DNA of 32,000 bases from Nitrosopumilus ureiphilus (GCF_013407185.1 NZ_CP026995.1:1868954-1900953), one strand, 5' to 3'; shown: positions 6,235-17,964, counted from the stretch's first letter. The notes: generated by a model from the letters alone, not told the origin. Numbers and translations: made by a program.

Positions 6235-6852
6235 TTAATTTTTGAAAGATTTTACAAGATTGATGAAATATTTGTGTAGTGAAATATCTTTTGTGAGTTC
6301 AGGGTGAAATGCAGTTCCAATCACATTACCCTTTTTCACTGCAACAACACGATCATTGAATTTTGCTAATATTTCCACATCAGAACCAACATCAGAGACA
6401 GATGGTGCTCGGATAAACACTCCATTGAATTTTGGGATATTAATTGAATCTAAAGAAACATCAGCTTCAAATGATTCTTTTTGTCGTCCAAATGAATTCC
6501 TCTCTAATTTAATATCAAGTATATTCAAAAGAGGTTGATCAGTTTTACCTACAATACGATCACTTGCAGTATTTGATAGTATTATCATTCCAGCACAAAT
6601 TCCAAGTACTGGCATCCCATTTTCAATTTTTTCCTTTAGAACCTTTAGTGATCCATTTACCAAAGAAAGTTGGCCTATAGTAGTACTTTCACCACCAGGA
6701 ATTATCAAACCATCCAACTGTGAGATATCCTCAGGAGTTTTAACGGATCTTACTTTTCCGTCTATTCCCAATTCATCTATTGCAGCTTTTGCAGATAAGA
6801 TATTTTCTTGAACATCTCCTTGGATTGATAAAACACCAACATCAAGACTCAT
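6235..6852 (-). CDS. pdxT: pyridoxal 5'-phosphate synthase, glutaminase subunit
   Basis: 205 aa with the motifs [17 protein letters not shown], the nucleophile region GICAGMIIL and AFHPELT. There is a 4-nt stop/start overlap with pdxS. Confidence 0.9.
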
Positions 6853-7817
6853 GATGAGCCACCACGATCTTGCATACGTAACTCTAATGTTTTTACATCC
6901 AAGCCTATCATAGATTGTCTTTCATCAATCATTTTTTGTGCTTCTTTTACTTTGTCAGATTCATTCCAAAAAGTCGTAGCCAAAACTATTGCTCTTGCTC
7001 TTTCTTTTGCATCATCTGCATTAAAAATTCCAGAACCTACAAAAATTCCATCACATCCAAGAGACATCAAATATGCAGCATCTGCAGGCGTTGCAATTCC
7101 ACCAGCTGCAAAATTTACAACAGGCAATCTTCCAAGTTTTGCAGTTTGTTGAACAATATCATAAGATACTTTGAATTCTCGTGCAATTCTAACTAAATCT
7201 TGATTATCGCCAGAATCATAGATTGCCTTTATTATTCTTAATTCATCATTTACTTTTTTAATATGGGTTACTGCTTCTGCAACATTTCCAGTACCTGGTT
7301 CTCCTTTTGTTCGAATCATTGATGCACCTTCCTCAATTCTTCTTAAAGCTTCAGCTAAAGATCTAGCACCATTAACAACAGGTGTTGTAAAATCCCATTT
7401 CCAAATATGATGAAATTCATCAGCAGGTGTAAGAACTTCTGATTCATCTATCATATCAACATCAGTTTCTTGAAGAATTAATGCTTCATTCACATGGCCA
7501 ATTCTACATTTGGCCATAACTGGAATTGTAACAGAATCCATTATATCTTCAATAATTCTAATACTTGCAGTTCGTGCAACTCCACCAGCTTTTCTGACTT
7601 CTGATGGAAGTTTGTCTAAAACCATTACAGATACTGCCCCAGCCTCTTCAGCAATTTGAGCTTGCTCTACAGTTGTAACATCCATTACTACTCCATTTTT
7701 TAGCATATGAGCAAAACCTCGTTTAACGGTAGAAGAACCACGCAAGGTATCAATAGAGTTTATTTTATCTGAAACTATTCCTTTGGCATCTAATCGTTCA
7801 CCAGATAACGGAAGCAT
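6849..7817 (-). CDS. pdxS: pyridoxal 5'-phosphate synthase, synthase subunit
   Basis: 322 aa with [35 protein letters not shown] and [17 protein letters not shown], typical of PdxS/SNZ. It lies upstream of pdxT. Confidence 0.9.
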
Positions 7818-8381: not shown

Positions 8382-8471
8382 GATTAACTAACAAATACAA
8401 ATTGATGTTGATTGCAAATAAATCTTGGTTAAAAATAACTTAAAATTCAAGTCTTTTTCATTCTTGTTTGT

Positions 8472-8625
8472 GGGGTCGTAGCCTAGCCTGGTAGGGCGAC
8501 AGTGTCTACGAAAAAGATCACCGCTAAGGGCTCCAAAGGTTAACTAAGCTAAACTGACTCACGGATGATGTAAGTTTGGAGCTGTAGTGACCCGTAGGTC
8601 GCCGGTTCGATTCCGGTCGGCCCCA
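8472..8625 (+). tRNA. tRNA-Trp(CCA) with two predicted introns (8501-8527 at position 28/29; ~8538-8590 at 37/38 or 38/39)
   Basis: Hand-folded. Acceptor GGGGTCG/CGGCCCC, T arm GCCGG-TTCGATT-CCGGT. After removing 27-nt and 53-nt inserts, the anticodon arm is ACGGG-CTCCAAA-CCCGT with variable loop AGGTC, giving a canonical 74-nt cloverleaf. Confidence 0.75.
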
Positions 8626-9106
8626 CGTACTATACGGGTTCATATGGTAAAAGCTAGAATTTATTTTTAGAACATAATCTTCAAAAATCTTGGTTAAAAT
8701 TCACCAAAAAATTGTTATGCAAAAATTACTAGTTTTTGATTTTATTGTATCTAGAGTTCAAATTGTAATGAGAGCATGATGTTATTGGGGTATAGACAAG
8801 CCCCTCTCATTTGACCATTAGTGAAAACTATGTGGAAATCAAAGCACAAAGATAACAATTTACATCACAAAAAAATGTAGGGACTTGAACTGATTAGAAA
8901 AAGCCCCTCGAGAGAATTTAATTTCAAATCTTGATCGTAATATGTAAAATAAAATGTTCTTTTTGACTTTCCGTTTTAAAAAATATCAAAAAATTAGGTT
9001 TAATTCAAATTATACTACAAAAAAACTTATTTCAAATTTTTTCAATTAAAAACACATGATCTGCTAAAAATAATGAATTTATGTGTAAAAAAATTAAAAA
9101 ATATTC

Positions 9107-9547
9107 TCAGGGATAATATTCACTTAATACCACTGATTTAGATATTCGATTAGAATTACTTGTAATCTTACCTTGATGTAAAGCATCAGTAACTACTTTC
9201 ATCAAAATTGTACGGTTCATAGGTTTTGAAATAAAGCTAAAGGCACCTAATTTCATCAGATAATTGATTGTGGTTTGATCATCTTTCCAAGCACTAATCA
9301 TAATCACTCTTGTATCCTTATCATTTTTTCGAATATATTCTAAAACTTTTGAACCATCAAGATTTGGCATCACATAATCCAATAAAATCAAATCCGGCCG
9401 ATATTTTACATATAACTTTAATCCCTCTACTCCATCTTTTGCTTCACAAATTCGAGCAAGTCGTACAGATTTCTTAATTATATCATGACAAAATGATCTA
9501 AATACTTTAGAATCGTCAATTATTAAAATAATCGGATATTTTCGCAT
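9107..9547 (-). CDS. stand-alone response-regulator receiver domain (CheY-like)
   Basis: 146 aa with ILIIDDS, the phospho-acceptor context DLILLDYVMPNLDG, VIMISAW and FISKP. It has no output domain and there is no adjacent kinase. Confidence 0.85.
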   Translation of the reverse strand: MRKYPIILIIDDSKVFRSFCHDIIKKSVRLARICEAKDGVEGLKLYVKYRPDLILLDYVMPNLDGSKVLEYIRKNDKDTRVIMISAWKDDQTTINYLMKLGAFSFISKPMNRTILMKVVTDALHQGKITSNSNRISKSVVLSEYYP

Positions 9548-9749
9548 AATTAATAATTATTTTTAAATAATTTAGTAAGCAGTTTGACTTTTTTAAACAA
9601 TCACTGAAATTTATGTAAAACCAATTTGAAACCAGATATTTTATTTCATGACAGTCACATACACATTCTTCTACACATTCTTCTACACATTTCATCCTAA
9701 AGCAATCATCACATAGGTTTCGTGGGTTTTGAATCATATTTTCAAACAA
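9516..9749 (-). CDS. possible small Cys-rich protein (uncertain)
   Basis: 77-aa ORF with 7 Cys in 21 residues (CDDCFRMKCVEECVEECVCDC). Its 3' part runs through AT-rich promoter-like sequence and overlaps the receiver-gene start by 32 nt. Confidence 0.25.
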   Translation of the reverse strand: MFENMIQNPRNLCDDCFRMKCVEECVEECVCDCHEIKYLVSNWFYINFSDCLKKSNCLLNYLKIIINYAKISDYFNN

Positions 9750-9797
9750 TTTGAATTCAAATAATACAAATTAAAGATAGAATTTAAAATTAATCAC

Positions 9798-10088
9798 ATG
9801 CCTACAAACATGCATCTAAACGCATTAAATGAACTTCAATATATGAAAAACCCATCCTTTGTAATCTTTGAGTTCAATAGCAATGCCATAGTTGATTTTG
9901 CAGAAGATTTAGAAGAAGCTCAAGGAAAATGTAAGATTGCAAATTCTGTGGGCTCAAATTGCAAATTCTTTGAGACGTCAATTTACACCATAGAAAAAAT
10001 ACGCAAGGCAACAAAAGATGTGGATACGAATCATCCTCAGCAAGGAATTGTTATCCCTGGTCTTGATATGAATTTCAGACAAGATTAG
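9798..10088 (+). CDS. hypothetical protein
   Basis: 96-aa ORF with no recognisable motif. Confidence 0.4.
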   Translation: MPTNMHLNALNELQYMKNPSFVIFEFNSNAIVDFAEDLEEAQGKCKIANSVGSNCKFFETSIYTIEKIRKATKDVDTNHPQQGIVIPGLDMNFRQD

Positions 10089-10164
10089 AACATAAATTCT
10101 TGAATTGTCGCGATTTAGGTTTTTTTGGAGAATTAGTGCAAAATCTATGCGGCTAACTATGAAT

Positions 10165-10365
10165 TTAATCTAATTTTACAATTCCTTGTTGAACCAAGTA
10201 TTTGATTGCATTAAGCAATTCATTCTCTGAAACTTGATCTTGTCCATACCATACAAAGATGTTCTTTACCCACTCGGGAATTTTAGATGATGATTTACTT
10301 TCCAAATTTCCATCATAATCTCTATGCCCCTTTGTGTTCCATACGAAGCAAGCTAATAGTTTCAT
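10165..10365 (-). CDS. small protein or fragment carrying one copy of the WW-module (IPEWVKNIFVWYGQDQVSENELLNAIKYLVQQGIV)
   Basis: 66 aa. The C-terminal 38 aa align with the duplicated module of 4327-5016. It has no signal peptide, so it may be a remnant. Confidence 0.45.
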   Translation of the reverse strand: MKLLACFVWNTKGHRDYDGNLESKSSSKIPEWVKNIFVWYGQDQVSENELLNAIKYLVQQGIVKLD

Positions 10366-10454
10366 TTATTTTGTCATATTTTTCTAATTTATGATTCTAA
10401 AATAGAATGGAGCTTTGTTGATTCTCTGACGAAAATATTTTCCAATCTTTTCAG

Positions 10455-10595
10455 CTAGTGATCTTTTTCTTTAGCATTGGCTATTAGATTCTCCAATGCA
10501 TGTGAACGGTTGGCAAACCTTTTCTTCTTGATTCCATCGTCAATCCATTTTATAAGATCCGCATCAATTGACACTGAAAATTTCTCCTTCTTCAC
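10455..10595 (-). CDS. ribbon-helix-helix (CopG/Arc/MetJ-type) DNA-binding protein, GTG start
   Basis: 46-aa ORF below the ORF-track cutoff, translated by hand as VKKEKFSVSIDADLIKWIDDGIKKKRFANRSHALENLIANAKEKDH. It shows the classic beta-strand plus two-helix pattern and is a paralogue of 14785-14922. Confidence 0.6.
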   Translation of the reverse strand: MKKEKFSVSIDADLIKWIDDGIKKKRFANRSHALENLIANAKEKDH

Positions 10596-10772
10596 TCTAA
10601 ACTCCTGCCAACTTGTGGATTAATACCAATGCGAATTATTCCAAATATGGAACTGAAATCATCACAAACCATGCGTAACAGATGAATTCATACAGGCTCA
10701 TTTTTATAAACGAGTGATACATAGTACTACACAGTAATATACAGTAACACGGATGTATGAACATAAGATAAA

Positions 10773-10952
10773 ATGAGCAATTCTAAAAGAGATACTGAGG
10801 AAGAGGTTTTAGGACCATTAGTAGAGGTGGAATGGAAATTCAAGTTGGACAAGACTATCTACAGAGAGTATCTCACTATGGAGCAATATGAGAACCTTAA
10901 GGAGATTCCGATAGTAAAATACTGCAAAATTATTGATGAAAAAAGATATTGA
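10773..10952 (+). CDS. hypothetical 59-aa protein
   Basis: Hand-translated ORF (MSNSKRDTEEEVLGPLVEVEWKFKLDKTIYREYLTMEQYENLKEIPIVKYCKIIDEKRY). A TTTTTATAAA TATA-like box lies ~65 nt upstream. Confidence 0.3.
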   Translation: MSNSKRDTEEEVLGPLVEVEWKFKLDKTIYREYLTMEQYENLKEIPIVKYCKIIDEKRY

Positions 10953-11286
10953 TGATCATTTAGGCGGTACAGGTGCTAGTCTCATTTCGCTCTATAATGC
11001 TCATATCGATAAGCCTAGACTTTACACGGGATTCTATTAGGGAATCAAGATTCACATCAGTAACTATTACTGGTGACCTCGGATCTACATTTTTTGGAGT
11101 TTCATAAACAATTACAAAATTAGATAGAATAATCGTTATCACGACACTGAATAATTATAACTATTGTTTTTTTATCCATTTTCATAATATTCTCATGTTG
11201 CTTTTTTAATGTTATGAAATGAAAAAATATTCTAAGAAGATAATAAAAGAGTAGCCTAATACAATACTAGTAATTTTTTTCATGCA

Positions 11287-11475
11287 ATGACATCCAGAAA
11301 ATATACTGTTTTTACAATTGCACTGACAATAATAGCCGCTAGTGTTTTTGCAATGACATATACAACGCTCAACGCAATCGCCTAGGACAAAAATGTATCA
11401 GACGCTCCAGAACCACCCGTAATAGGAAAGAATGTTCTAAAACATGGAATAAGTAAAGGGTTCAATTATTTTTAG
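11287..11475 (+). pseudogene. possible remnant of a secreted/membrane protein gene interrupted by an in-frame TAG
   Basis: The signal-anchor-like MTSRKYTVFTIALTIIAASVFAMTYTTLNAIA ends at a TAG (11383-11385). The same frame then continues for 29 more codons (DKNVSDAPEPPVIGKNVLKHGISKGFNYF). Confidence 0.3.
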
Positions 11476-11594
11476 AAGTATCACCAAATGATATGCTTTA
11501 CTATTAATGAGACATACAGTTTATTTTTGTCAGCAAATAAACAGAATAATTATTCACAATCACAAATTAAATTTTTTATTTAATTATCTCACCA

Positions 11595-13145
11595 CTAACC
11601 AACTTTAACAAATTTTCCTACAGACGGAACATCATTCCCGTCAAGAATGAATAACATGTAATACCCCGGAGGCGCAAATGTGTTATTTTTTGGACTAGAT
11701 ACGGTCAAGATATTTGCTGTTTGATTTATAATTGGCAACATAAGACAGCGTTGATCCATATTGTTGTTGTGTGTTGTAGATGATATCTTTATCAAAGAAA
11801 CTTTTTGAATACTTGATGCATCATCTGTATGTATTTCATAATTATTATTGTAAGACATTGTAGGTAGTTCTATATCCTGAATTTTGGGTCTTGTAGGATT
11901 ACATTGTAGTTTTGGAGGAGTTATAATTTCAATATTGTGCTCAAAATTCTCTTTTGGTGCAAAAACGGATCTTACCCAATTATGACCTGTACTTCCAGCA
12001 ACCACTACTTCTCCACTTGGTAAAAGAACTGCAGAACCATGGTACAGCCTATCTCTTTTTAGATATGACACAACTTTCCATGTTTCATTACGTGGATCAA
12101 ACAAGTGAACTTCCCTTACTGCAATATCATTATCATCAGCTTGTCCTTTTGCAGCACCATTTGTAACTAAAACTGTCCCATCAGGTAAAAGTATGGAATC
12201 ACACAAAAAGCGGCGTATATGTTCAGTTGTTTTTTTCCAACCTGAAGAATTAGCAGGATTATTTAGATCAGCTGTAAATATTTCGGGAGTTTGTGTTGCA
12301 TCTGTATTTTTATCAGGATGTAACTTGGTACTTCCACCAACAAGTAGTATCTTGGCAGTATCTGTTTCATGTTCAAGGGGTAAAAGTACACAGGAGCCCA
12401 TTCCAGGATATGTTCGGGTTCCTGGAGTTTCTGTTTTAAATTTGGCATCAGTAATAAATTTTTTTTCTGCAATATTCCAAATATGTGTAGTTTCTTCTGA
12501 ATGCACAAAAAGAGTTCCACCCGGCAAAACCTGCAAAAATGGATACATTTTGATTTCATCAATAAACTTTACAGGAGTTGAGAGTTTATTGGCTACAGGA
12601 TCAAATATCTCATAATCTAAATTCATGGCACCAAATAATGCATGATGTGCATGTGAATACGTGCCTGATACTATCAATGCTTTGCCATCAGGTAATGTAA
12701 CACATGTGGGATACCATCTTGCTTTTGGCATTCCTGGTTTGTATCTTTGCCATCGTTGATTAGGATCAATATCGGGATTAGGATCAAAAGTATGAATATC
12801 ATGATCTGCTGCAGGTTTTTTTATAATTTTTAACACTAATTGCAGAAATCCTGGTAGAGACAATACAATTGTTGCAGGATGATTATATGTGGACTGGCCA
12901 CCTGCAACAAACAATCGTCCATCCGGAAGAAAACAATGACCAGAACAAAACAAATTCCTTCCTAGTTTTGGATTAATTGGATTACGTGGATCTTCAGGAT
13001 CCCATAGACTAGATTCACCTTTTGTCCAGTTCCAAATATTTTCATGATCACCAGAAAACAACAATACTTTTCCAGTTCGTAAAAGTGCTAGATGTACAGC
13101 TATGGATTCTACTTCATATGTAGCATTCTGATGATCTATTTCCAT
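11595..13145 (-). CDS. copper radical oxidase (galactose oxidase / glyoxal oxidase-like; Kelch beta-propeller plus C-terminal E-set domain)
   Basis: 516 aa. Family ligand contexts are all present: FCSGH (Cys of the Tyr-Cys cofactor), ARWYPT, RLYHGS and TTHNNNMDQR. No N-terminal signal peptide. The start overlaps the tyrosinase stop by 10 nt. Confidence 0.85.
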   Translation of the reverse strand: MEIDHQNATYEVESIAVHLALLRTGKVLLFSGDHENIWNWTKGESSLWDPEDPRNPINPKLGRNLFCSGHCFLPDGRLFVAGGQSTYNHPATIVLSLPGFLQLVLKIIKKPAADHDIHTFDPNPDIDPNQRWQRYKPGMPKARWYPTCVTLPDGKALIVSGTYSHAHHALFGAMNLDYEIFDPVANKLSTPVKFIDEIKMYPFLQVLPGGTLFVHSEETTHIWNIAEKKFITDAKFKTETPGTRTYPGMGSCVLLPLEHETDTAKILLVGGSTKLHPDKNTDATQTPEIFTADLNNPANSSGWKKTTEHIRRFLCDSILLPDGTVLVTNGAAKGQADDNDIAVREVHLFDPRNETWKVVSYLKRDRLYHGSAVLLPSGEVVVAGSTGHNWVRSVFAPKENFEHNIEIITPPKLQCNPTRPKIQDIELPTMSYNNNYEIHTDDASSIQKVSLIKISSTTHNNNMDQRCLMLPIINQTANILTVSSPKNNTFAPPGYYMLFILDGNDVPSVGKFVKVG

Positions 13146-14365
13146 CGTCTTTTTGTAAATGGTGACAACAAAAATGCAGATGTTCTAGCAAGTGCAACAA
13201 ATGGGAGAACGATAGAATATTTCATGATTATTTTAAATGGTTTGTTTTTTCTCATTTGGTCTGCAATGGGAGGGGAAAATTTGTAGTAAATGTTCAAAAT
13301 AAATTCAAATGTTTTTTTGAATTTACTTTTTAATACAACATCATCTCTGAATTCTCGCAAAAACTGAACTGGTGGTTCTAATTCAGAACCATATGCTGCT
13401 GTTGCAATAAAACATCTTTGTCCTGAAGGATTAGGAGTTGGATTTGGAGAAGGGTTAGATATAGGCCATCCACTGCTTCCAGATACATCATCGTAAACAT
13501 AGTCTAGGGCTTCAATATCTAAAACATCTCTTGGTCTTCGTATGTCTGATGCGTCAATTGAGGGCAACAATGGCGTTGCATTACTTATGTTAGTAAAAGA
13601 GTCCCCTCCATCCCATGGCCACATTCTATCATCTAATTTGTGACCGACATTACCTGTATTGTTGGGATTATAGTTATCAGTTCCAGGATGAGTCAGTTGC
13701 CATTTTGCCCAAAGCCTGTCAATATTTGCATGGTGTAAAAAGAAGATAGGATCATTAGGCGAGGTCATTCGGGTCATATGTCCTCCAACTCTCATGTGGA
13801 CAGTTCCATGAGGACCTTCCAATGCAGGTCTAAAACCATGGAAGTTATTTTCATTAAGGGAATTATTTGCCTCAGTTGCAGGAAGTGTTGAAGGATTCAT
13901 GCTATTGTTTCGAAGTAGTGTGGTTCCATGATTACCCTGATCAAGTTGTGGATCTACTTGCCATCCATCAGGGTTTTGTGGTGTTGGAGCTTCAGAAAGA
14001 TATCCTGAAGTTTGCAATCCCATGGTACCCAAAAAATCAACAGTAAAGACATCATCAGTATCAGATGAAACTCCAGATTCCCACTTCCAATAGGGTAAAG
14101 AAACATCAGGATCTACTTCCTGCAGTGCCTTTTCAAATCTTAAGATGAATTCTCTATGCCATGCAAGAAATGCAGGACCGCCATGTCCGCCGTCCCCACT
14201 GGCTGCACCCAGTCTGCTAATAACACCATAATGAATTGCAACAAACTCATCATATACATTAGTAGTGTGCCCAGGTTTTACAGTCTTCTTTAGTGTGATT
14301 ATTGCATTCATGAGTTTTGCTTTATCTGGGGCAGGCAATGTTGCAGCATTTCGTCTTGTATGCAT
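13136..14365 (-). CDS. tyrosinase (type-3 dicopper oxidase) with Pro/Asn linker and C-terminal CFIATAAYGS module plus hydrophobic tail
   Basis: 409 aa. CuA: IHYG...HGGPAFLAWHREFILRFE. CuB: HGTVHMRVGGHM...DPIFFLHHANIDRLWAKWQ. Linker SNPSPNPTPNPSGQR, then CFIATAAYGSELEPPVQFLREFRD and a hydrophobic C-terminus. Confidence 0.85.
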   Translation of the reverse strand: MHTRRNAATLPAPDKAKLMNAIITLKKTVKPGHTTNVYDEFVAIHYGVISRLGAASGDGGHGGPAFLAWHREFILRFEKALQEVDPDVSLPYWKWESGVSSDTDDVFTVDFLGTMGLQTSGYLSEAPTPQNPDGWQVDPQLDQGNHGTTLLRNNSMNPSTLPATEANNSLNENNFHGFRPALEGPHGTVHMRVGGHMTRMTSPNDPIFFLHHANIDRLWAKWQLTHPGTDNYNPNNTGNVGHKLDDRMWPWDGGDSFTNISNATPLLPSIDASDIRRPRDVLDIEALDYVYDDVSGSSGWPISNPSPNPTPNPSGQRCFIATAAYGSELEPPVQFLREFRDDVVLKSKFKKTFEFILNIYYKFSPPIADQMRKNKPFKIIMKYSIVLPFVALARTSAFLLSPFTKRRWK

Positions 14366-14565
14366 TAGCTGTTTTCTCCTTCATCTATGATTGATTTTGC
14401 AAGATCTTCCAGTGTAGAAAATTCTCGATAAGGTAAAACATCATATGCAAAATATTTTTTTGTGTCATCATCAAAATTGCATTGTATTTTTTCATCATCA
14501 ATATACAAGACATTTGTATCATATTCAGCTTTGATTATTTTGTTCTTGTAAGATTCTGATGACAT
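14365..14565 (-). CDS. small acidic Tyr-containing protein, first gene of the copper-oxidase cassette
   Basis: 66 aa. Its stop overlaps the tyrosinase start (TAATG). No motif recognised. The position is analogous to tyrosinase helper ('caddie') genes, with no sequence similarity claimed. Confidence 0.5.
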   Translation of the reverse strand: MSSESYKNKIIKAEYDTNVLYIDDEKIQCNFDDDTKKYFAYDVLPYREFSTLEDLAKSIIDEGENS

Positions 14566-14660
14566 AATTTAGTAGAGTATGACTGTAATACATAAGGATT
14601 ATGCAATTCAAGGAAAATCATATTTATTTGTTTATTACCCATCACAAAATAATAACAAGA

Positions 14661-14741
14661 CAAACAGGATAACAAAACCTGTTACAATTAGTTGAGAGTT
14701 CAAACCTGTTGAGGTTTGGTTGTACGAGTCTCGAGGTTTGT
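14661..14741. promoter_or_regulatory. cluster of palindromic/half-site motifs upstream of the copper-oxidase cassette
   Basis: AACAGG-N9-CCTGTT (14663-14683); a perfect 18-bp palindrome CAAACCT-GTTG-AGGTTTG (14701-14718); and a third AGGTTTG at 14734-14740 next to the palindrome CGAGTCTCG. The cluster lies 100-175 nt upstream of the ATG at 14565. Confidence 0.45.
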
Positions 14742-15483
14742 TAAAATGAAATGTTTAGAATAAAAATGAAAATTTAATTTTTACTTATCCCTCATCCATT
14801 AATTTTTGAATAGCATATTGAATACAATGCGATCTATTTGCAAATATTCTTTTTTCAATTTTTTTGTCTATCCACTCAAGTTGATCTTTTTCAAGTGCTA
14901 TACTTACAGGGTTTTTTTCCATTTTTCATAATTCCATCATTGAATTATGAATGATTAATTTCTAGTAACATTTAACTAGTATTAATAATTATTAATATTC
15001 ATTAATAATGGTTAATAATCAATATGATGAAAATGAGATGAAAAAGAAACATTTGGAATTGGAAATTAGACTAAAAGAATTTTTCAAAAATTACAAAACT
15101 CATTCTGAGAGACTCTCTAAAAATCAGTGATCATAAGATATCTTCAAAAAATTATTCCACAACATTTTCTATCTATGAAATCACAAAACGAGCTTTGTTT
15201 ACAGAGTTCATTATGAATGAAGATGAATCAGAAGGAATCATAATTTGTGAGAAATGTATGACAATATGGAAAAATTATTATGAATATTTATCAAAACACT
15301 TTGAGAACATAATTTTATATTTTAGATTGGAAAACATTCATCATAATCAGGCATAGGATTTATGAAAATCGTTCTCATGTTATTTACAGAGTTCTTCATT
15401 TTAGAATTACGATATCCAAAAAACCAGAATTTGTTCAAACCCTAATAGGTTTGGTTTAGTGAACCGTGGCAGGTTTGAACTCT
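14695..15483. repeat. 14-bp inverted repeat pair (AGAGTTCAAACCTG at 14695-14708; its reverse complement at 15470-15483) bracketing a 789-bp segment
   Basis: Exact 14/14 match read directly. A third partial copy, GTTCAAACC, at 15433-15441 forms CAAACC-N6-GGTTTG. The segment contains the RHH gene and short broken plus-strand ORFs. Confidence 0.6.
14785..14922 (-). CDS. ribbon-helix-helix (CopG-type) DNA-binding protein
   Basis: 45-aa ORF below the track cutoff: MEKNPVSIALEKDQLEWIDKKIEKRIFANRSHCIQYAIQKLMDEG. It shares VSI...WID...FANRSH with 10455-10595. Confidence 0.6.
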   Translation of the reverse strand: MEKNPVSIALEKDQLEWIDKKIEKRIFANRSHCIQYAIQKLMDEG

Positions 15484-15658
15484 ACTTGTTATTTTCCAGT
15501 TTCTTTTGATTATACAGAATGTTTTTCTTTTTTAGATCGTCTAGTGTTCTGCCCAACTCCTCGACATAAATTGGCTAAAGATTCTCATTATTCTTGATTA
15601 ACCCAAATCACGTAAATCCAATCATGGATATTCGTGTATGAACCTGATTAGTCATAAC

Positions 15659-15684
15659 GTTTGATTCCAGTTGTCCCACGTAAA
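15659..15684 (+). repeat. degenerate direct copy of the tRNA-Trp 3' end (att-like)
   Basis: GTTTGATTCCAGTTGTCCCACGTAA aligns to tRNA positions 8605-8629 (GTTCGATTCCGGTCGGCCCCACGTA) with 20 of 25 identities and one 1-nt gap. Three of the four substitutions are C-to-T or G-to-A changes. Same orientation; 7 nt from the aconitase stop. Confidence 0.45.
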
Positions 15685-15690
15685 ATTTTG

Positions 15691-17964
15691 TCATCTATTT
15701 CTTAAAACATTAAGTGCAGAACCAGCTTTAAACCATCCAATCTGAGATTGATTGTATGAATGATTAAGTAAAATTTCATCTTTACTTTCATCTCTATGTG
15801 AAATAATACATTTTACTTGTTTGTGTGGTTCCAACTCATTTAATTCTATAAGACTAATTTTATCATCTTCTAAAATTTTTTCATAATCATCTGGATTGCT
15901 AAATGTAAGTGCTAAAATTCCTTGTTTTTTCAAATTCGTTTCGTGAATTCTAGCAAGGCTTTTGGTGATTACTGCTGCACATCCTAAATATCGAGGAGAC
16001 ATTGCAGCATGCTCTCTACTGCTACCTTCACCATAATTATTATCACCTATGATTACCCATCTCATTTGTTTTTCTTTGTATTGTCTTGCAATATTTGAAA
16101 ATGTTTCAAGTTGGTTATTGAGAATGTTCTTACCTTTGCCTACTTCATCATTAAATGCATTGACTGCTCCCAAAAGCATGTTATCACTCAAATTATCTAA
16201 ATGACCTCTAAGTGACAACCATGCGCCAGCAGGAGAAATATGGTCAGTAGTACATTTTCCTTTGGCTTTAACCAGAATTGGTAAATCAACAAAGTCTTTG
16301 CCATCCCATTTTGAAAATGGTTCTAAAAGTTGTAGTCTTTTACTGTTAGGATCAATAATTACTTCAACATCATTTGATTTTTCAGGAGGCGCAATGAAAA
16401 TTCCTTCAGGAATCATAAATCCATTCTCAGGAACTTCTGGTGCAGGTTTGGGAGGGTCTAGTTTGAATTTTGTTCCATCAGAAGCTGTAAGTTCATCTTT
16501 CAATGGATTAAAGGACAATCTACCGCCTAAAGCTAATGCAATAATCATCTCAGGACTGCCAATAAAGTTCAAAGTACTACGATGACCGTCATTTCTTCCT
16601 GGAAAATTTCTGTTAAAGGTAGTAACAATGGTGTTTTTTTCTTCATTTTGTAATTCAGGTCTATTCCATTGTCCAATGCAAGGCCCACATGCATTTGCCA
16701 GAACGGTTGCACCAATTTCCTTAAGAGAGTCCATCTGGCCATCTCTTTCTATGGTTCCACGAATTTGTTCAGAACCTGGAGTAATTAACAAAGGAACTTT
16801 AGACTGGATTCCTTTTTCTTTTGCTTGTTGAGCTATACTTGCAACTCTGGACATGTCTTCATAAGAGGAATTGGTACAACTTCCAATCAATGCAACCGAT
16901 ATTGGATCAACATAATCATTTGATTTTACATCCTCACCTAATTCTGAAATTGTTCTAGCCAAATCAGGAGTATGAGGTCCAACAATATGGGGCTCTAATG
17001 TAGAAAGATTGATTTCAATCACCCTGTCAAAAAAGATTTCGGGATTTAATTCAACTTCAGGATCTGCTACAAGTAATTCTTTACTTTGATTTGCTAATTC
17101 AGCAATTTTTTCTCTGTTTGTATATTTTAGATAAGTTTCCATTCTTTCATCATATGGAAAAATTGAACAAGTTGCACCAATTTCTGCTCCCATATTGGTA
17201 ATAGTAGCTTTACCAGTACAACTGATAGATTTTGTGCCAGGACCAAAATATTCTACAATAGAATTAGTTCCTCCAGAAACCGTTAATTCTTCTGCAACTT
17301 TTAGTATGATATCTTTAGGTGCTGTCCATCCATTAAGTTCTCCAGTTAATTTAACACCAATTTTTTTTGGGTAAAGTAACTCCCAAGGAAGTCCTGCCAT
17401 AGTTTCAGCTGCATCTAATCCACCTACACCAACTGCAATCATTCCCAGTCCACCAGCATTTGGAGTGTGAGAATCCGTACCAATCATCAGGCCTCCTGGA
17501 AATGCATAATTTTCAAGAACTACCTGATGAATGATTCCAGCCCCAGGTTTCCAAAAACCACACCCATGTTTTGCAGCTGCAGATTGCAAGAATTTGAAAA
17601 CCTCGCTATTTTCATCAAGGGAAACCTTCATGTCAACATCACCTTGAACTTCAGCTCTAATCAGATGATCACAATGGACAGTTGTTGGCAAGGCAGATTG
17701 TTTAAGTCCGGCTTGCATAAATTGAAGCATTACCATTTGACCTGTTACGTCTTGTAATGCAACTCTGTCAGGTTTAAGAAAAACATAATCTTTTCCGCCA
17801 GTAAGAGTTTTGTCAGGAATTTCATAAAGGTGTCCAGATAAAATTTTCTCAGTAAGCGTAAGAGGTCTTCCAGTGACGTTTCTATATTTTACAACATTTT
17901 CTTTAATTTTTGAATAGACATTTGAAACAAGTTCAGGGGTAGTATCTATATCCACAGAAAACAT
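15691..17964 (-). CDS. acn: aconitate hydratase (aconitase)
   Basis: 757 aa with aconitase family motifs (IGTDSHTPNAGGLG, GSCTNSSYEDM, NACGPCIGQW, NRNFPGRNDG, the swivel domain with GDNNYGEGSSREHAA). Confidence 0.92.
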   Translation of the reverse strand: MFSVDIDTTPELVSNVYSKIKENVVKYRNVTGRPLTLTEKILSGHLYEIPDKTLTGGKDYVFLKPDRVALQDVTGQMVMLQFMQAGLKQSALPTTVHCDHLIRAEVQGDVDMKVSLDENSEVFKFLQSAAAKHGCGFWKPGAGIIHQVVLENYAFPGGLMIGTDSHTPNAGGLGMIAVGVGGLDAAETMAGLPWELLYPKKIGVKLTGELNGWTAPKDIILKVAEELTVSGGTNSIVEYFGPGTKSISCTGKATITNMGAEIGATCSIFPYDERMETYLKYTNREKIAELANQSKELLVADPEVELNPEIFFDRVIEINLSTLEPHIVGPHTPDLARTISELGEDVKSNDYVDPISVALIGSCTNSSYEDMSRVASIAQQAKEKGIQSKVPLLITPGSEQIRGTIERDGQMDSLKEIGATVLANACGPCIGQWNRPELQNEEKNTIVTTFNRNFPGRNDGHRSTLNFIGSPEMIIALALGGRLSFNPLKDELTASDGTKFKLDPPKPAPEVPENGFMIPEGIFIAPPEKSNDVEVIIDPNSKRLQLLEPFSKWDGKDFVDLPILVKAKGKCTTDHISPAGAWLSLRGHLDNLSDNMLLGAVNAFNDEVGKGKNILNNQLETFSNIARQYKEKQMRWVIIGDNNYGEGSSREHAAMSPRYLGCAAVITKSLARIHETNLKKQGILALTFSNPDDYEKILEDDKISLIELNELEPHKQVKCIISHRDESKDEILLNHSYNQSQIGWFKAGSALNVLRNR

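Follow-up and report, generated by a model that had tools for sequence, protein, structure and literature searches.

A 7-kb stretch between a tRNA-Trp gene and the aconitase gene of Nitrosopumilus ureiphilus, a mesophilic ammonia-oxidising archaeon, is very probably a decayed integrative island that was targeted to tRNA-Trp. It is of the kind known as thaumarchaeal cryptic integrated elements, and it has lost its integrase. The window analyzed here is a stretch of 32,000 nucleotides from this genome (GCF_013407185.1, NZ_CP026995.1:1868954-1900953) with a GC content of 32.5%, and positions are counted from its first letter (Table 1). A first-pass annotation made from the sequence alone had proposed a tRNA-targeted integrative element at this place. 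The proposal is borne out by empty sites in related genomes, by a direct repeat that outscores shuffled sequences, by a perfect copy of the repeat in the closest relative L001, and by an integrase at homologous sites. The insertion, its ends and the empty sites were observed directly, as were the family and the position of the integrase.

Empty and occupied sites in relatives

For comparison, 80 Nitrosopumilaceae loci were fetched around aconitase orthologues, and the window genes and the tRNA were mapped onto each of them. Labels of the form L0xx denote the genome loci, metagenome contigs or Logan contigs of relatives that were used. The aconitase of the window is 85-96% identical to those of Nitrosopumilus, Nitrosarchaeum, and other Nitrosopumilaceae. 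A search for empty sites, which the first-pass annotation had suggested, was rewarding: in 57 of the 80 loci, the tRNA-Trp gene lies directly beside aconitase, 3-18 nt past its stop codon. The gene order at these sites is aconitase, tRNA-Trp, a 177-aa gene, PdxS, and PdxT, with less than 400 nt between aconitase and the 177-aa gene. L003 and L005, whose aconitase is 94% identical to that of the window, are among the empty sites.

At least 17 of the 80 relatives have an occupied site, and the cargo differs from locus to locus. Insertions of 0.4-9.4 kb separate aconitase from tRNA-Trp in nine loci, while in eight further loci the DNA beyond aconitase is non-syntenic as far as the sequence extends. 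L001, whose aconitase is 96% identical, has the same island-end sequence and a perfect 26-nt repeat at the same place. Its island has only 65 nt in common with the window island. In the window, an intact tRNA-Trp gene is regenerated at 8472-8625, and the island starts at 8626-8630. This tRNA gene is 96-100% identical to the aconitase-adjacent gene of the relatives.

Two other occupied sites may be described here. A 5.3-kb island (L076:12263-17530) lacks an integrase but is bounded by a direct repeat of 30 nt without any mismatch and by inverted repeats that are nearly perfect; its cargo includes an internal IS6/IS240-like DDE transposase and a HAD hydrolase. An integrase-bearing tRNA-Trp island of Nitrosarchaeum (L097:15384-21344) carries N6/N4 methyltransferase, NOV_C, SNF2 helicase, and MmeI-type genes, and its cargo looks like a defence island.

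The direct repeat

The left copy of the direct repeat (attL) starts in the T-loop of tRNA-Trp and extends past the 3′ end of the gene by CGTA, and the right copy (attR) is a degenerate version of it. The alignment of 8605-8629 with 15659-15682 gives 20 identities over 25 positions with one 1-nt gap, as described in the first-pass annotation. Depending on where the gap is placed, three or all of the four substitutions are GC-to-AT transitions. The bias toward such changes had already been pointed out, and it is as expected from neutral decay in an AT-rich genome. The attR copy ends 7-8 nt short of the aconitase stop codon (15691-15693), again in keeping with the earlier description. To its right, AAATTTTG and the aconitase stop codon are homologous to the empty-site spacer of L003, as insertion into a tRNA 3′ end predicts.

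The significance of the repeat was assessed with 300 dinucleotide-preserving shuffles of the 7-kb island, a control that had been proposed earlier. The repeat has a local score of 14. The shuffled sequences gave a mean of 8.0 and a maximum of 11, and none reached 14. The repeat is better than the shuffled controls, and the chance probability of "a few percent" that had been estimated is far too high. With the 23 kb downstream as the target of the same test, a score of 14 was reached in a fraction of 0.003. Matches with higher scores further downstream are probably the T-arms of other tRNA genes.

The same segment is perfectly duplicated in L001, L016, L062, L066, and L076. The perfect tRNA 3′-end copies beside aconitase measure 26 nt in L001, 30 nt in L076, about 23 nt in L066, and about 20 nt in L016 and L062. 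The aconitase-side copy is decayed in L042, L046, and L078, and almost nothing of it is left in L002 and L004.

Inverted repeats and the layout of the attachment site

A pair of 16-nt inverted repeats (IR) sits just inside the direct repeats and is common to all the islands. The motif shared after the tRNA (IR-R) is CTAWWCGGGTTCATAT, and its reverse complement ATATGAACCCGATTAG is the repeat on the aconitase side (IR-L). IR-R directly follows the tRNA in L016, L076, L078, L081-L092, L096, and L097, and decayed versions of it are present in L042, L046, L079, and L067. IR-L lies about 8 nt before the aconitase-side tRNA copy in L001, L042, L046, L016, L062, L076, L053, and L078. The conserved end motifs are not present at the empty sites, and hence they are not host sequence. 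In the window, IR-R matches the inverted sequence of 15636-15652 at 13 of 16 positions (shuffle fraction 0.0055), and IR-L has 3-4 mismatches to the consensus. IR-L resembles the anticodon-stem/variable region of tRNA-Trp only when gaps are allowed; the ungapped similarity is poor and is not relied on.

It was found that an internal junction of the L078 island (6844-6903) holds IR-L, the tRNA-Trp 3′ copy, and IR-R in one piece. Thus, this junction displays the layout of the attachment site of the free element (attP). The 9.2-kb island of L078 has the structure expected for two elements integrated in tandem. IR-R was also found after other tRNA ends, in exact form in L093 (tRNA-Pro) and L098 (tRNA-Arg) and as a variant in L099 (tRNA-Val). 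Thus, IR-R is borne by the element, while the core between the inverted repeats is specific for the target tRNA. IR-R (containing TTCATATAC) ends 26-30 nt before the integrase start codon and may therefore contain the integrase promoter. Overall, the inverted repeats may serve in integrase binding, as the integrase promoter, or both.

The CCTATCGGGTTCATATAC motif lies between the tRNA and the integrase at L093:9883-10001 and L098:250-369, with a variant at L099:2500-2629. As for the right end of the tRNA-Pro element of L093, an IR-L-like 16-mer is present at 15156-15171, where the adjoining similarity to tRNA-Pro is not above that of shuffled sequences.

A divergent tyrosine recombinase at homologous sites

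I scanned metagenomes for the tRNA-Trp end followed by IR-R. This yielded 11 contigs, all of them attL junctions; the attL pattern had no match in viral contigs. A conserved open reading frame (ORF) starts about 30 nt past IR-R and is full-length in L084 (518 aa) and L088. An intact integrase ORF adjoins attL in L084, L088, L092, L096, and L097. In L092, L096, and L097, the order is PdxT, PdxS, the 177-aa gene, tRNA-Trp, IR-R, integrase, and more than 10 kb of cargo, which includes restriction-modification and helicase genes in L097 and an MS channel, an FGase, and a gamma-glutamyl transpeptidase (GGT) in L096. The same integrase family was found behind tRNA-Pro(TGG) in L093, tRNA-Arg(TCG) in L098, and tRNA-Val(TAC) in L099.

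The database relatives of this integrase are 64 proteins of 440-520 aa. NCBI gives one of them the name site-specific integrase, and about half of the 64 have a precomputed match to PF00589. When 20 relatives were scanned singly, 16 matched PF00589 (Phage_integrase, best E = 8e-8) and 11 matched the SAM-like N-terminal domain PF02899. The NCBIfam model of archaeal XerA (XerA_Arch) matches at E = 1e-8, below its cut-off. The invariant positions of the alignment are R173, K201, R291-H292, W313, and Y323, and a CxxC...CxxC zinc ribbon lies past the catalytic tyrosine. With this signature of the superfamily, the integrase is, judged by its sequence, a divergent tyrosine recombinase.

The attachment sequence of L099 provides a link to known elements. 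Table S2 of a 2019 survey of thaumarchaeal elements (Krupovic et al. 2019, Environ Microbiol, PMC6563490) lists the attachment sequence AATCCCCGTGGGCCCAT for NitNF5-E1, an element of Ca. Nitrosopumilus adriaticus at tRNA-Val(TAC). The tRNA-Val attachment sequence before the same-family integrase in L099 is identical to this entry. Thus, the integrase family belongs to the known thaumarchaeal cryptic integrated elements.

Loss of the integrase

The first-pass annotation had found no integrase in the island and had recommended a search for remnants. A tblastn search with E values up to 10 agrees with it: the only match at the island is 8587-8658, which is the tRNA end plus IR-R. Another match in the window, at 5.4-6.1 kb, is coiled-coil noise in an unrelated gene. 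The missing integrase is found at the homologous tRNA-side position of other occupied sites. Thus, the window island is a remnant and not a complete member of the family.

It was revealed that the relatives form a graded series of integrase loss, which fits the earlier suggestion of an old, decayed insertion. The series begins with the intact genes of L084, L088, L092, L096, and L097. The integrase is frameshifted or fragmented in L091 and L081-L083. Stubs of roughly the first 50-100 residues remain in L016 and L078, and a few dozen nucleotides remain in L089. At the end of the series, nothing is left in the window and in L076. Among the ORFs scanned with Pfam in the islands of L002, L010, L016, L042, L046, L048, L062, L066, L076, and L078, no integrase was detected, only cargo and one DDE transposase.

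Cargo and composition of the island

The gene content given in the first-pass annotation proved accurate: a receiver domain, short ORFs, two paralogous RHH-like genes, and a pair of copper oxidases are all present (Table 1). The pair consists of a tyrosinase and a GlxA-like radical copper oxidase and is not a multicopper oxidase. The tyrosinase matches the NCBIfam models MelC2-like (E = 5.5e-50, below the cut-off) and CFI_box_CTERM (E = 1.5e-21). The 66-aa ORF preceding it might encode a MelC1-like helper protein. This ORF, the tyrosinase gene, and the GlxA-like gene form an apparent operon, as they are overlapping genes on the same strand.

Table 1. Features of the island and its flanks in the window. 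E values are those of the family matches named.
Feature	Position	Strand	Evidence or remark
tRNA-Trp(CCA) gene	8472..8625	+	inferred exons 8472-8500, 8528-8537, 8591-8625
tRNA-Trp inferred introns	8501-8527 (27 nt), 8538-8590 (53 nt)	+	removed in silico; borders inferred
attL direct repeat, T-loop to tRNA 3′ end plus CGTA, GTTCGATTCCGGTCGGCCCCACGTA	8605..8629	+	alignment and shuffles
IR-R, element-side terminal inverted repeat, CTATACGGGTTCATAT	8630..8645	+	conserved directly after tRNA in relatives
AT-rich non-coding stretch (25% GC, 461 nt), place of the integrase in intact elements	8646..9106	.	tblastn: nothing beyond 8658
Stand-alone response-regulator receiver protein, 146 aa, cargo	9107..9547	-	Pfam Response_reg, E = 4.6e-26
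ORF, 96 aa	9798..10088	+	no family match
ORF, 66 aa; C-terminal ~40 residues are a short recurrent domain	10165..10365	-	tblastn 23-47% identity, >30 Nitrosopumilaceae loci
RHH-like small protein, 46 aa	10455..10595	-	BLASTP against 14785-14922: 42% identity, E = 1e-11; no Pfam match of its own
ORF, 59 aa, weak NitrOD1 (Nitrosopumilus output domain 1)	10773..10952	+	PF18549, E = 4.3e-5, 23.9 bits against a cut-off of 25
GlxA/glyoxal-oxidase-like radical copper oxidase, 516 aa, cargo	11595..13145	-	Pfam Glyoxal_oxid_N and GO-like_E_set; NCBIfam GlxA, E = 1.2e-62, below cut-off
Tyrosinase, 409 aa, C-terminal CFI-box-CTERM, cargo	13136..14365	-	Pfam Tyrosinase, E = 6.6e-41
ORF, 66 aa; stop overlaps tyrosinase start	14365..14565	-	kept upstream of tyrosinase in L094 and L095
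RHH (CopG-like) small protein, 45 aa, paralogue of 10455-10595	14785..14922	-	Pfam RHH_1, E = 0.0028, below cut-off
IR-L, decayed element-side terminal inverted repeat, GTATGAACCTGATTAG	15636..15651	+	aligns with ATATGAACCCGATTAG of relatives
attR, degenerate direct copy of tRNA-Trp 3′ end, GTTTGATTCCAGTTGTCCCACGTA	15659..15682	+	alignment and shuffles
Aconitase, conserved flank outside the island	15691..17964	-	Pfam Aconitase, E = 2.8e-138; synteny in 80 loci

The oxidase cassette has relatives elsewhere. Its sequence (11598-14789) is 97.7% identical to Logan contig L095:1-3190, and the similarity ends exactly at the stop codon of the GlxA-like gene; L095 runs on into a 192-aa ORF without a counterpart in the window. 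Other Nitrosopumilus genomes hold tyrosinases at 38-50% identity, and the C-terminal CFI-box-CTERM domain of about 90 aa recurs in L048, L066, L098, and L050. Thus, the cassette seems to circulate in the flexible gene pool of the family. The tyrosinase and GlxA-like proteins of the window themselves had no exact-sequence record.

The composition of the island is less unusual than had been thought. The cassette is indeed raised in GC content, but the values are 39.4% for the tyrosinase gene and 35.9% for the GlxA-like gene instead of the 42% counted earlier. Twenty flanking ORFs average 32.2% (sd 2.1), and the island as a whole, at 32.5%, equals its flanks. In the GC and tetranucleotide profile that had been called for, z peaks at 5 within 12-14.5 kb and does not exceed 2.2 anywhere outside the island; only the oxidase cassette deviates. 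In annotation, 8626-15682 is to be treated as flexible genome and the tyrosinase/GlxA-like operon as specific to the strain.

The recurrent domain of about 40 aa in the ORF at 10165-10365 (IPxWIKNNAxWWxxGxISDxEFxxxIQYLxxxGII) occurs in tandem in many Nitrosopumilaceae loci. An ORF of L091 (7007-7333 in flipped orientation) has this domain fused to the end of the broken integrase ORF. Two hairpin-like, non-coding sequences (GTTCAAACC..GGTTTGGTT, 79% alike) lie at 14698-14721 and 15433-15456, toward the aconitase-side end of the island.

The tRNA-Trp gene and its introns

Neither ARAGORN nor Rfam called the unspliced tRNA-Trp gene at 8.5 kb because two inferred introns interrupt it. Once both were removed, the spliced sequence of 74 nt was called tRNA-Trp(CCA) by ARAGORN. 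The segment 8472-8625 shows the acceptor stem, the D-arm, the T-arm, and a CTCCAAA anticodon loop. Intron 2 has CTGA, GATGATG, and GTGA motifs that recall box C/D RNAs, with no significant match in Rfam, and it also holds TTTGGAGC, which is complementary to the anticodon loop. The empty-site loci split into two spacing classes, of 164-186 nt and 250-265 nt. Thus, the intron content of tRNA-Trp may differ among the relatives.

Each of 36 related loci has the 15-mer AAATCTTGGTTAAAA a single time, some 35 nt before tRNA-Trp, and therefore it is probably part of the tRNA promoter. The window has it at 8420-8434 and has a second exact copy at 8685-8699, 60 nt into the island; a stretch of 26 nt around the two copies is 85% alike.

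Origin of the island

The following scenario very probably explains these results. Site-specific recombination would have brought a mobile element into the 3′ end of tRNA-Trp(CCA), a gene that abuts the aconitase stop codon in most relatives. At the attachment site of this element, the pair of 16-nt inverted repeats would have enclosed 20-30 nt copied from the tRNA 3′ end, reaching from the T-loop to 4 nt beyond the discriminator base, with a tyrosine-recombinase gene beginning about 30 nt after the right-hand repeat. Recombination would regenerate the tRNA on one side (attL, IR-R, integrase) and leave a partial tRNA copy beside aconitase on the other (IR-L, attR). The recombinase mechanism in this scenario is inferred. 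In the window genome, the integrase was probably deleted later, right up to IR-R, while the attR copy and IR-L gathered AT-biased substitutions. The content probably turned into a mosaic of the receiver protein, two RHH-like regulators, and the copper-oxidase operon of tyrosinase and GlxA-like genes.

Several observations weigh against this scenario. No integrase sequence is left in the window, so that the link to the integrase consists of the conserved ends and the homologous sites elsewhere. No single locus showed the whole element, intact integrase and both ends together. Neither viral nor metagenome contigs matched the IR-L/tRNA copy/IR-R pattern expected of a free circular form. A search with the integrase profile brought up no solved structure in the PDB by sequence and no relative in the viral contigs of IMG/VR, and the Pfam scores of the catalytic domain are mostly under the curated cut-off. 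Lastly, the RHH, receiver, and oxidase genes of the window were found in none of the integrase-bearing islands; the cargo may have come separately from the element that left the ends.

Since only the cassette deviates in composition and the cargo was seen in no integrase-bearing island, the island is probably a mosaic rather than the intact cargo of one element. A refinement of the integrative origin goes further: only the ends would come from the integrative element, and the cargo would have been acquired by later tandem integration of further elements and internal deletions, or by an exchange of content between strains through homologous recombination in the conserved flanks, so that the cassette did not arrive with the attL/attR element. 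I give this refinement about an even chance. The L001 island, which shares the end sequence and little else, is consistent with it, as are the abrupt halt of the L095 similarity at the GlxA-like stop codon, the composition of the cassette, and the tandem in L078. Part of the gene set of the larger L096 island (FGase and GGT, and the MS channel) is also present in L042 and L046. However, no internal att-like junction or tandem was detected in the window island (best score 11 against a shuffle mean of 12.4), and there is no second integrase stub in the window.

A wider proposal concerns the whole family. The tRNA-Trp/aconitase junction may be a family-wide hot spot served by one integrase family through a modular site (ATATGAACCCGATAGG ... 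CCTATCGGGTTCATAT around an exchangeable Trp, Pro, Arg, or Val segment), where integrase-less islands that keep both repeats, like those of the window and of L076, can still be moved in trans. I regard this combination as rather unlikely. If it is true, such islands are a vehicle by which ammonia-oxidising archaea shuffle their accessory genes, copper oxidases and defence systems among them.

Is the window island itself still mobile? An integrase of the same family, encoded at another place, could excise and integrate it in trans, as with cis-mobilizable elements. Both inverted repeats and both direct repeats have been kept despite the loss of the integrase, and L076 likewise lacks an integrase while its repeats are perfect or nearly so. 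However, attR and attL of the window disagree at 5 of 25 positions, with changes in the T-loop as well, and IR-L is decayed; therefore the island is most likely fixed and probably immobile at present. The graded integrase stubs of other loci also point to plain decay, and viral and metagenome contigs yielded no circular junction. Continued mobility is thus an improbable reading, with only a slim chance of being right.

An integrase of the "suicidal" SSV type, with the attachment site inside its ORF, would be split on integration, and ATGAACCCG at attR would serve as the start codon. By eye, eight attR ends have an ATG or GTG in the frame of the tRNA copy, and the frame is open through the tRNA copy into the integrase in L083, L087, L088, and L078. 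However, the distance from IR-R to the conserved TKPET codons is not fixed (29-33 nt), 7 of 13 loci have a stop codon in frame after the tRNA copy and before the integrase start, and most homologues begin with ATG at M-T/P-S/T-K-P-E-T. With frame and spacing not conserved and stops intervening, this hardly credible possibility was rejected. Thus, integration leaves the integrase whole, with attP immediately upstream of its gene.

It is just as hard to believe that nothing was inserted and that an ancestral region shows a chance or stray T-arm similarity of 25 nt: T-arm sequences are common to many tRNAs and the similarity is imperfect, but the shuffle tests, the 57 empty sites, the perfect copy in L001, and the conserved element ends refute it. 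A casposon was dismissed as well, since Cas1 and PolB are absent from the Pfam matches of the 10 main window ORFs (the short ones were not scanned) and of the scanned island ORFs of other loci, and since the repeat is an element-borne tRNA copy that differs with each tRNA target. An insertion-sequence (IS) or other DDE transposon was dismissed because the window island has no transposase, the DDE transposase of L076 being internal cargo.

Meaning for ammonia-oxidising archaea

The integrative island is a clean, well-bounded case of accessory-gene gain and loss in streamlined ammonia-oxidising archaea. Their tRNA-Trp gene is a docking site: between about a fifth and a quarter of the species sampled have an insert there, with differing cargo that includes copper oxidases, ion channels, methyltransferases, and genes for restriction or defence. 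Decayed islands can escape surveys that are seeded with integrase genes. The inverted repeats with their tRNA-specific core provide a simple signature for finding both islands and integrase sites in metagenomes.

Comparison with known systems

SSV-type elements and casposons are archaeal mobile elements able to target tRNA 3′ ends, and casposons also have terminal inverted repeats and a target duplication. The present elements differ from the SSV type in that the integrase ORF is not split. They differ from casposons in that the duplication is an element-carried tRNA copy varying with the tRNA target and, in the window, in that Cas1 and PolB are missing from the 10 main ORFs.

Cis-mobilizable elements (CIMEs) are integrase-less derivatives of bacterial integrative and conjugative elements and are flanked by att sites. 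The window island is similarly an att-bounded island without recombination genes at a site used by integrase-bearing relatives, and L078 shows a similar tandem accretion. Unlike in CIMEs, attR of the window is degenerate, and the likeness is one of layout.

The classical tRNA-linked islands offer a closer parallel. A scheme of integrase sublocations in tRNA genes was reportedly set out by Williams in 2002. As in these islands, the identity block runs from the T-loop to past the 3′ end, the tRNA gene is regenerated, and the integrase gene lies by the tRNA-proximal att site; old islands likewise lose the integrase, and their att copies decay. The differences are the host, a mesophilic ammonia-oxidising archaeon, and a tRNA gene with two introns.

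The closest counterparts are the thaumarchaeal cryptic integrated elements (PMC6563490). Like the elements studied here, they insert into tRNA 3′ ends, including those of intron-containing tRNAs, and have short direct att repeats, an intact integrase, and variable, mostly uncharacterised cargo. The window copy differs in having no integrase. A systematic context analysis of integrase genes is one of the three search strategies described in the survey. Such an integrase-seeded strategy could presumably not find an integrase-less copy. Since tRNA-Trp was not found as a target in the available text or supplementary tables of the survey, it is, relative to that material, a new target of thaumarchaeal integrated elements. 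How often the tRNA-Trp site is used across Nitrosopumilaceae is also new relative to the literature consulted. The inverted-repeat pair around a target-specific tRNA core is a candidate for a further new feature, for which PMC6563490 was not searched. Judged by the available target list of 2019, an intron-containing tRNA-Trp gene that standard tRNA finders miss extends the range of thaumarchaeal integration targets.

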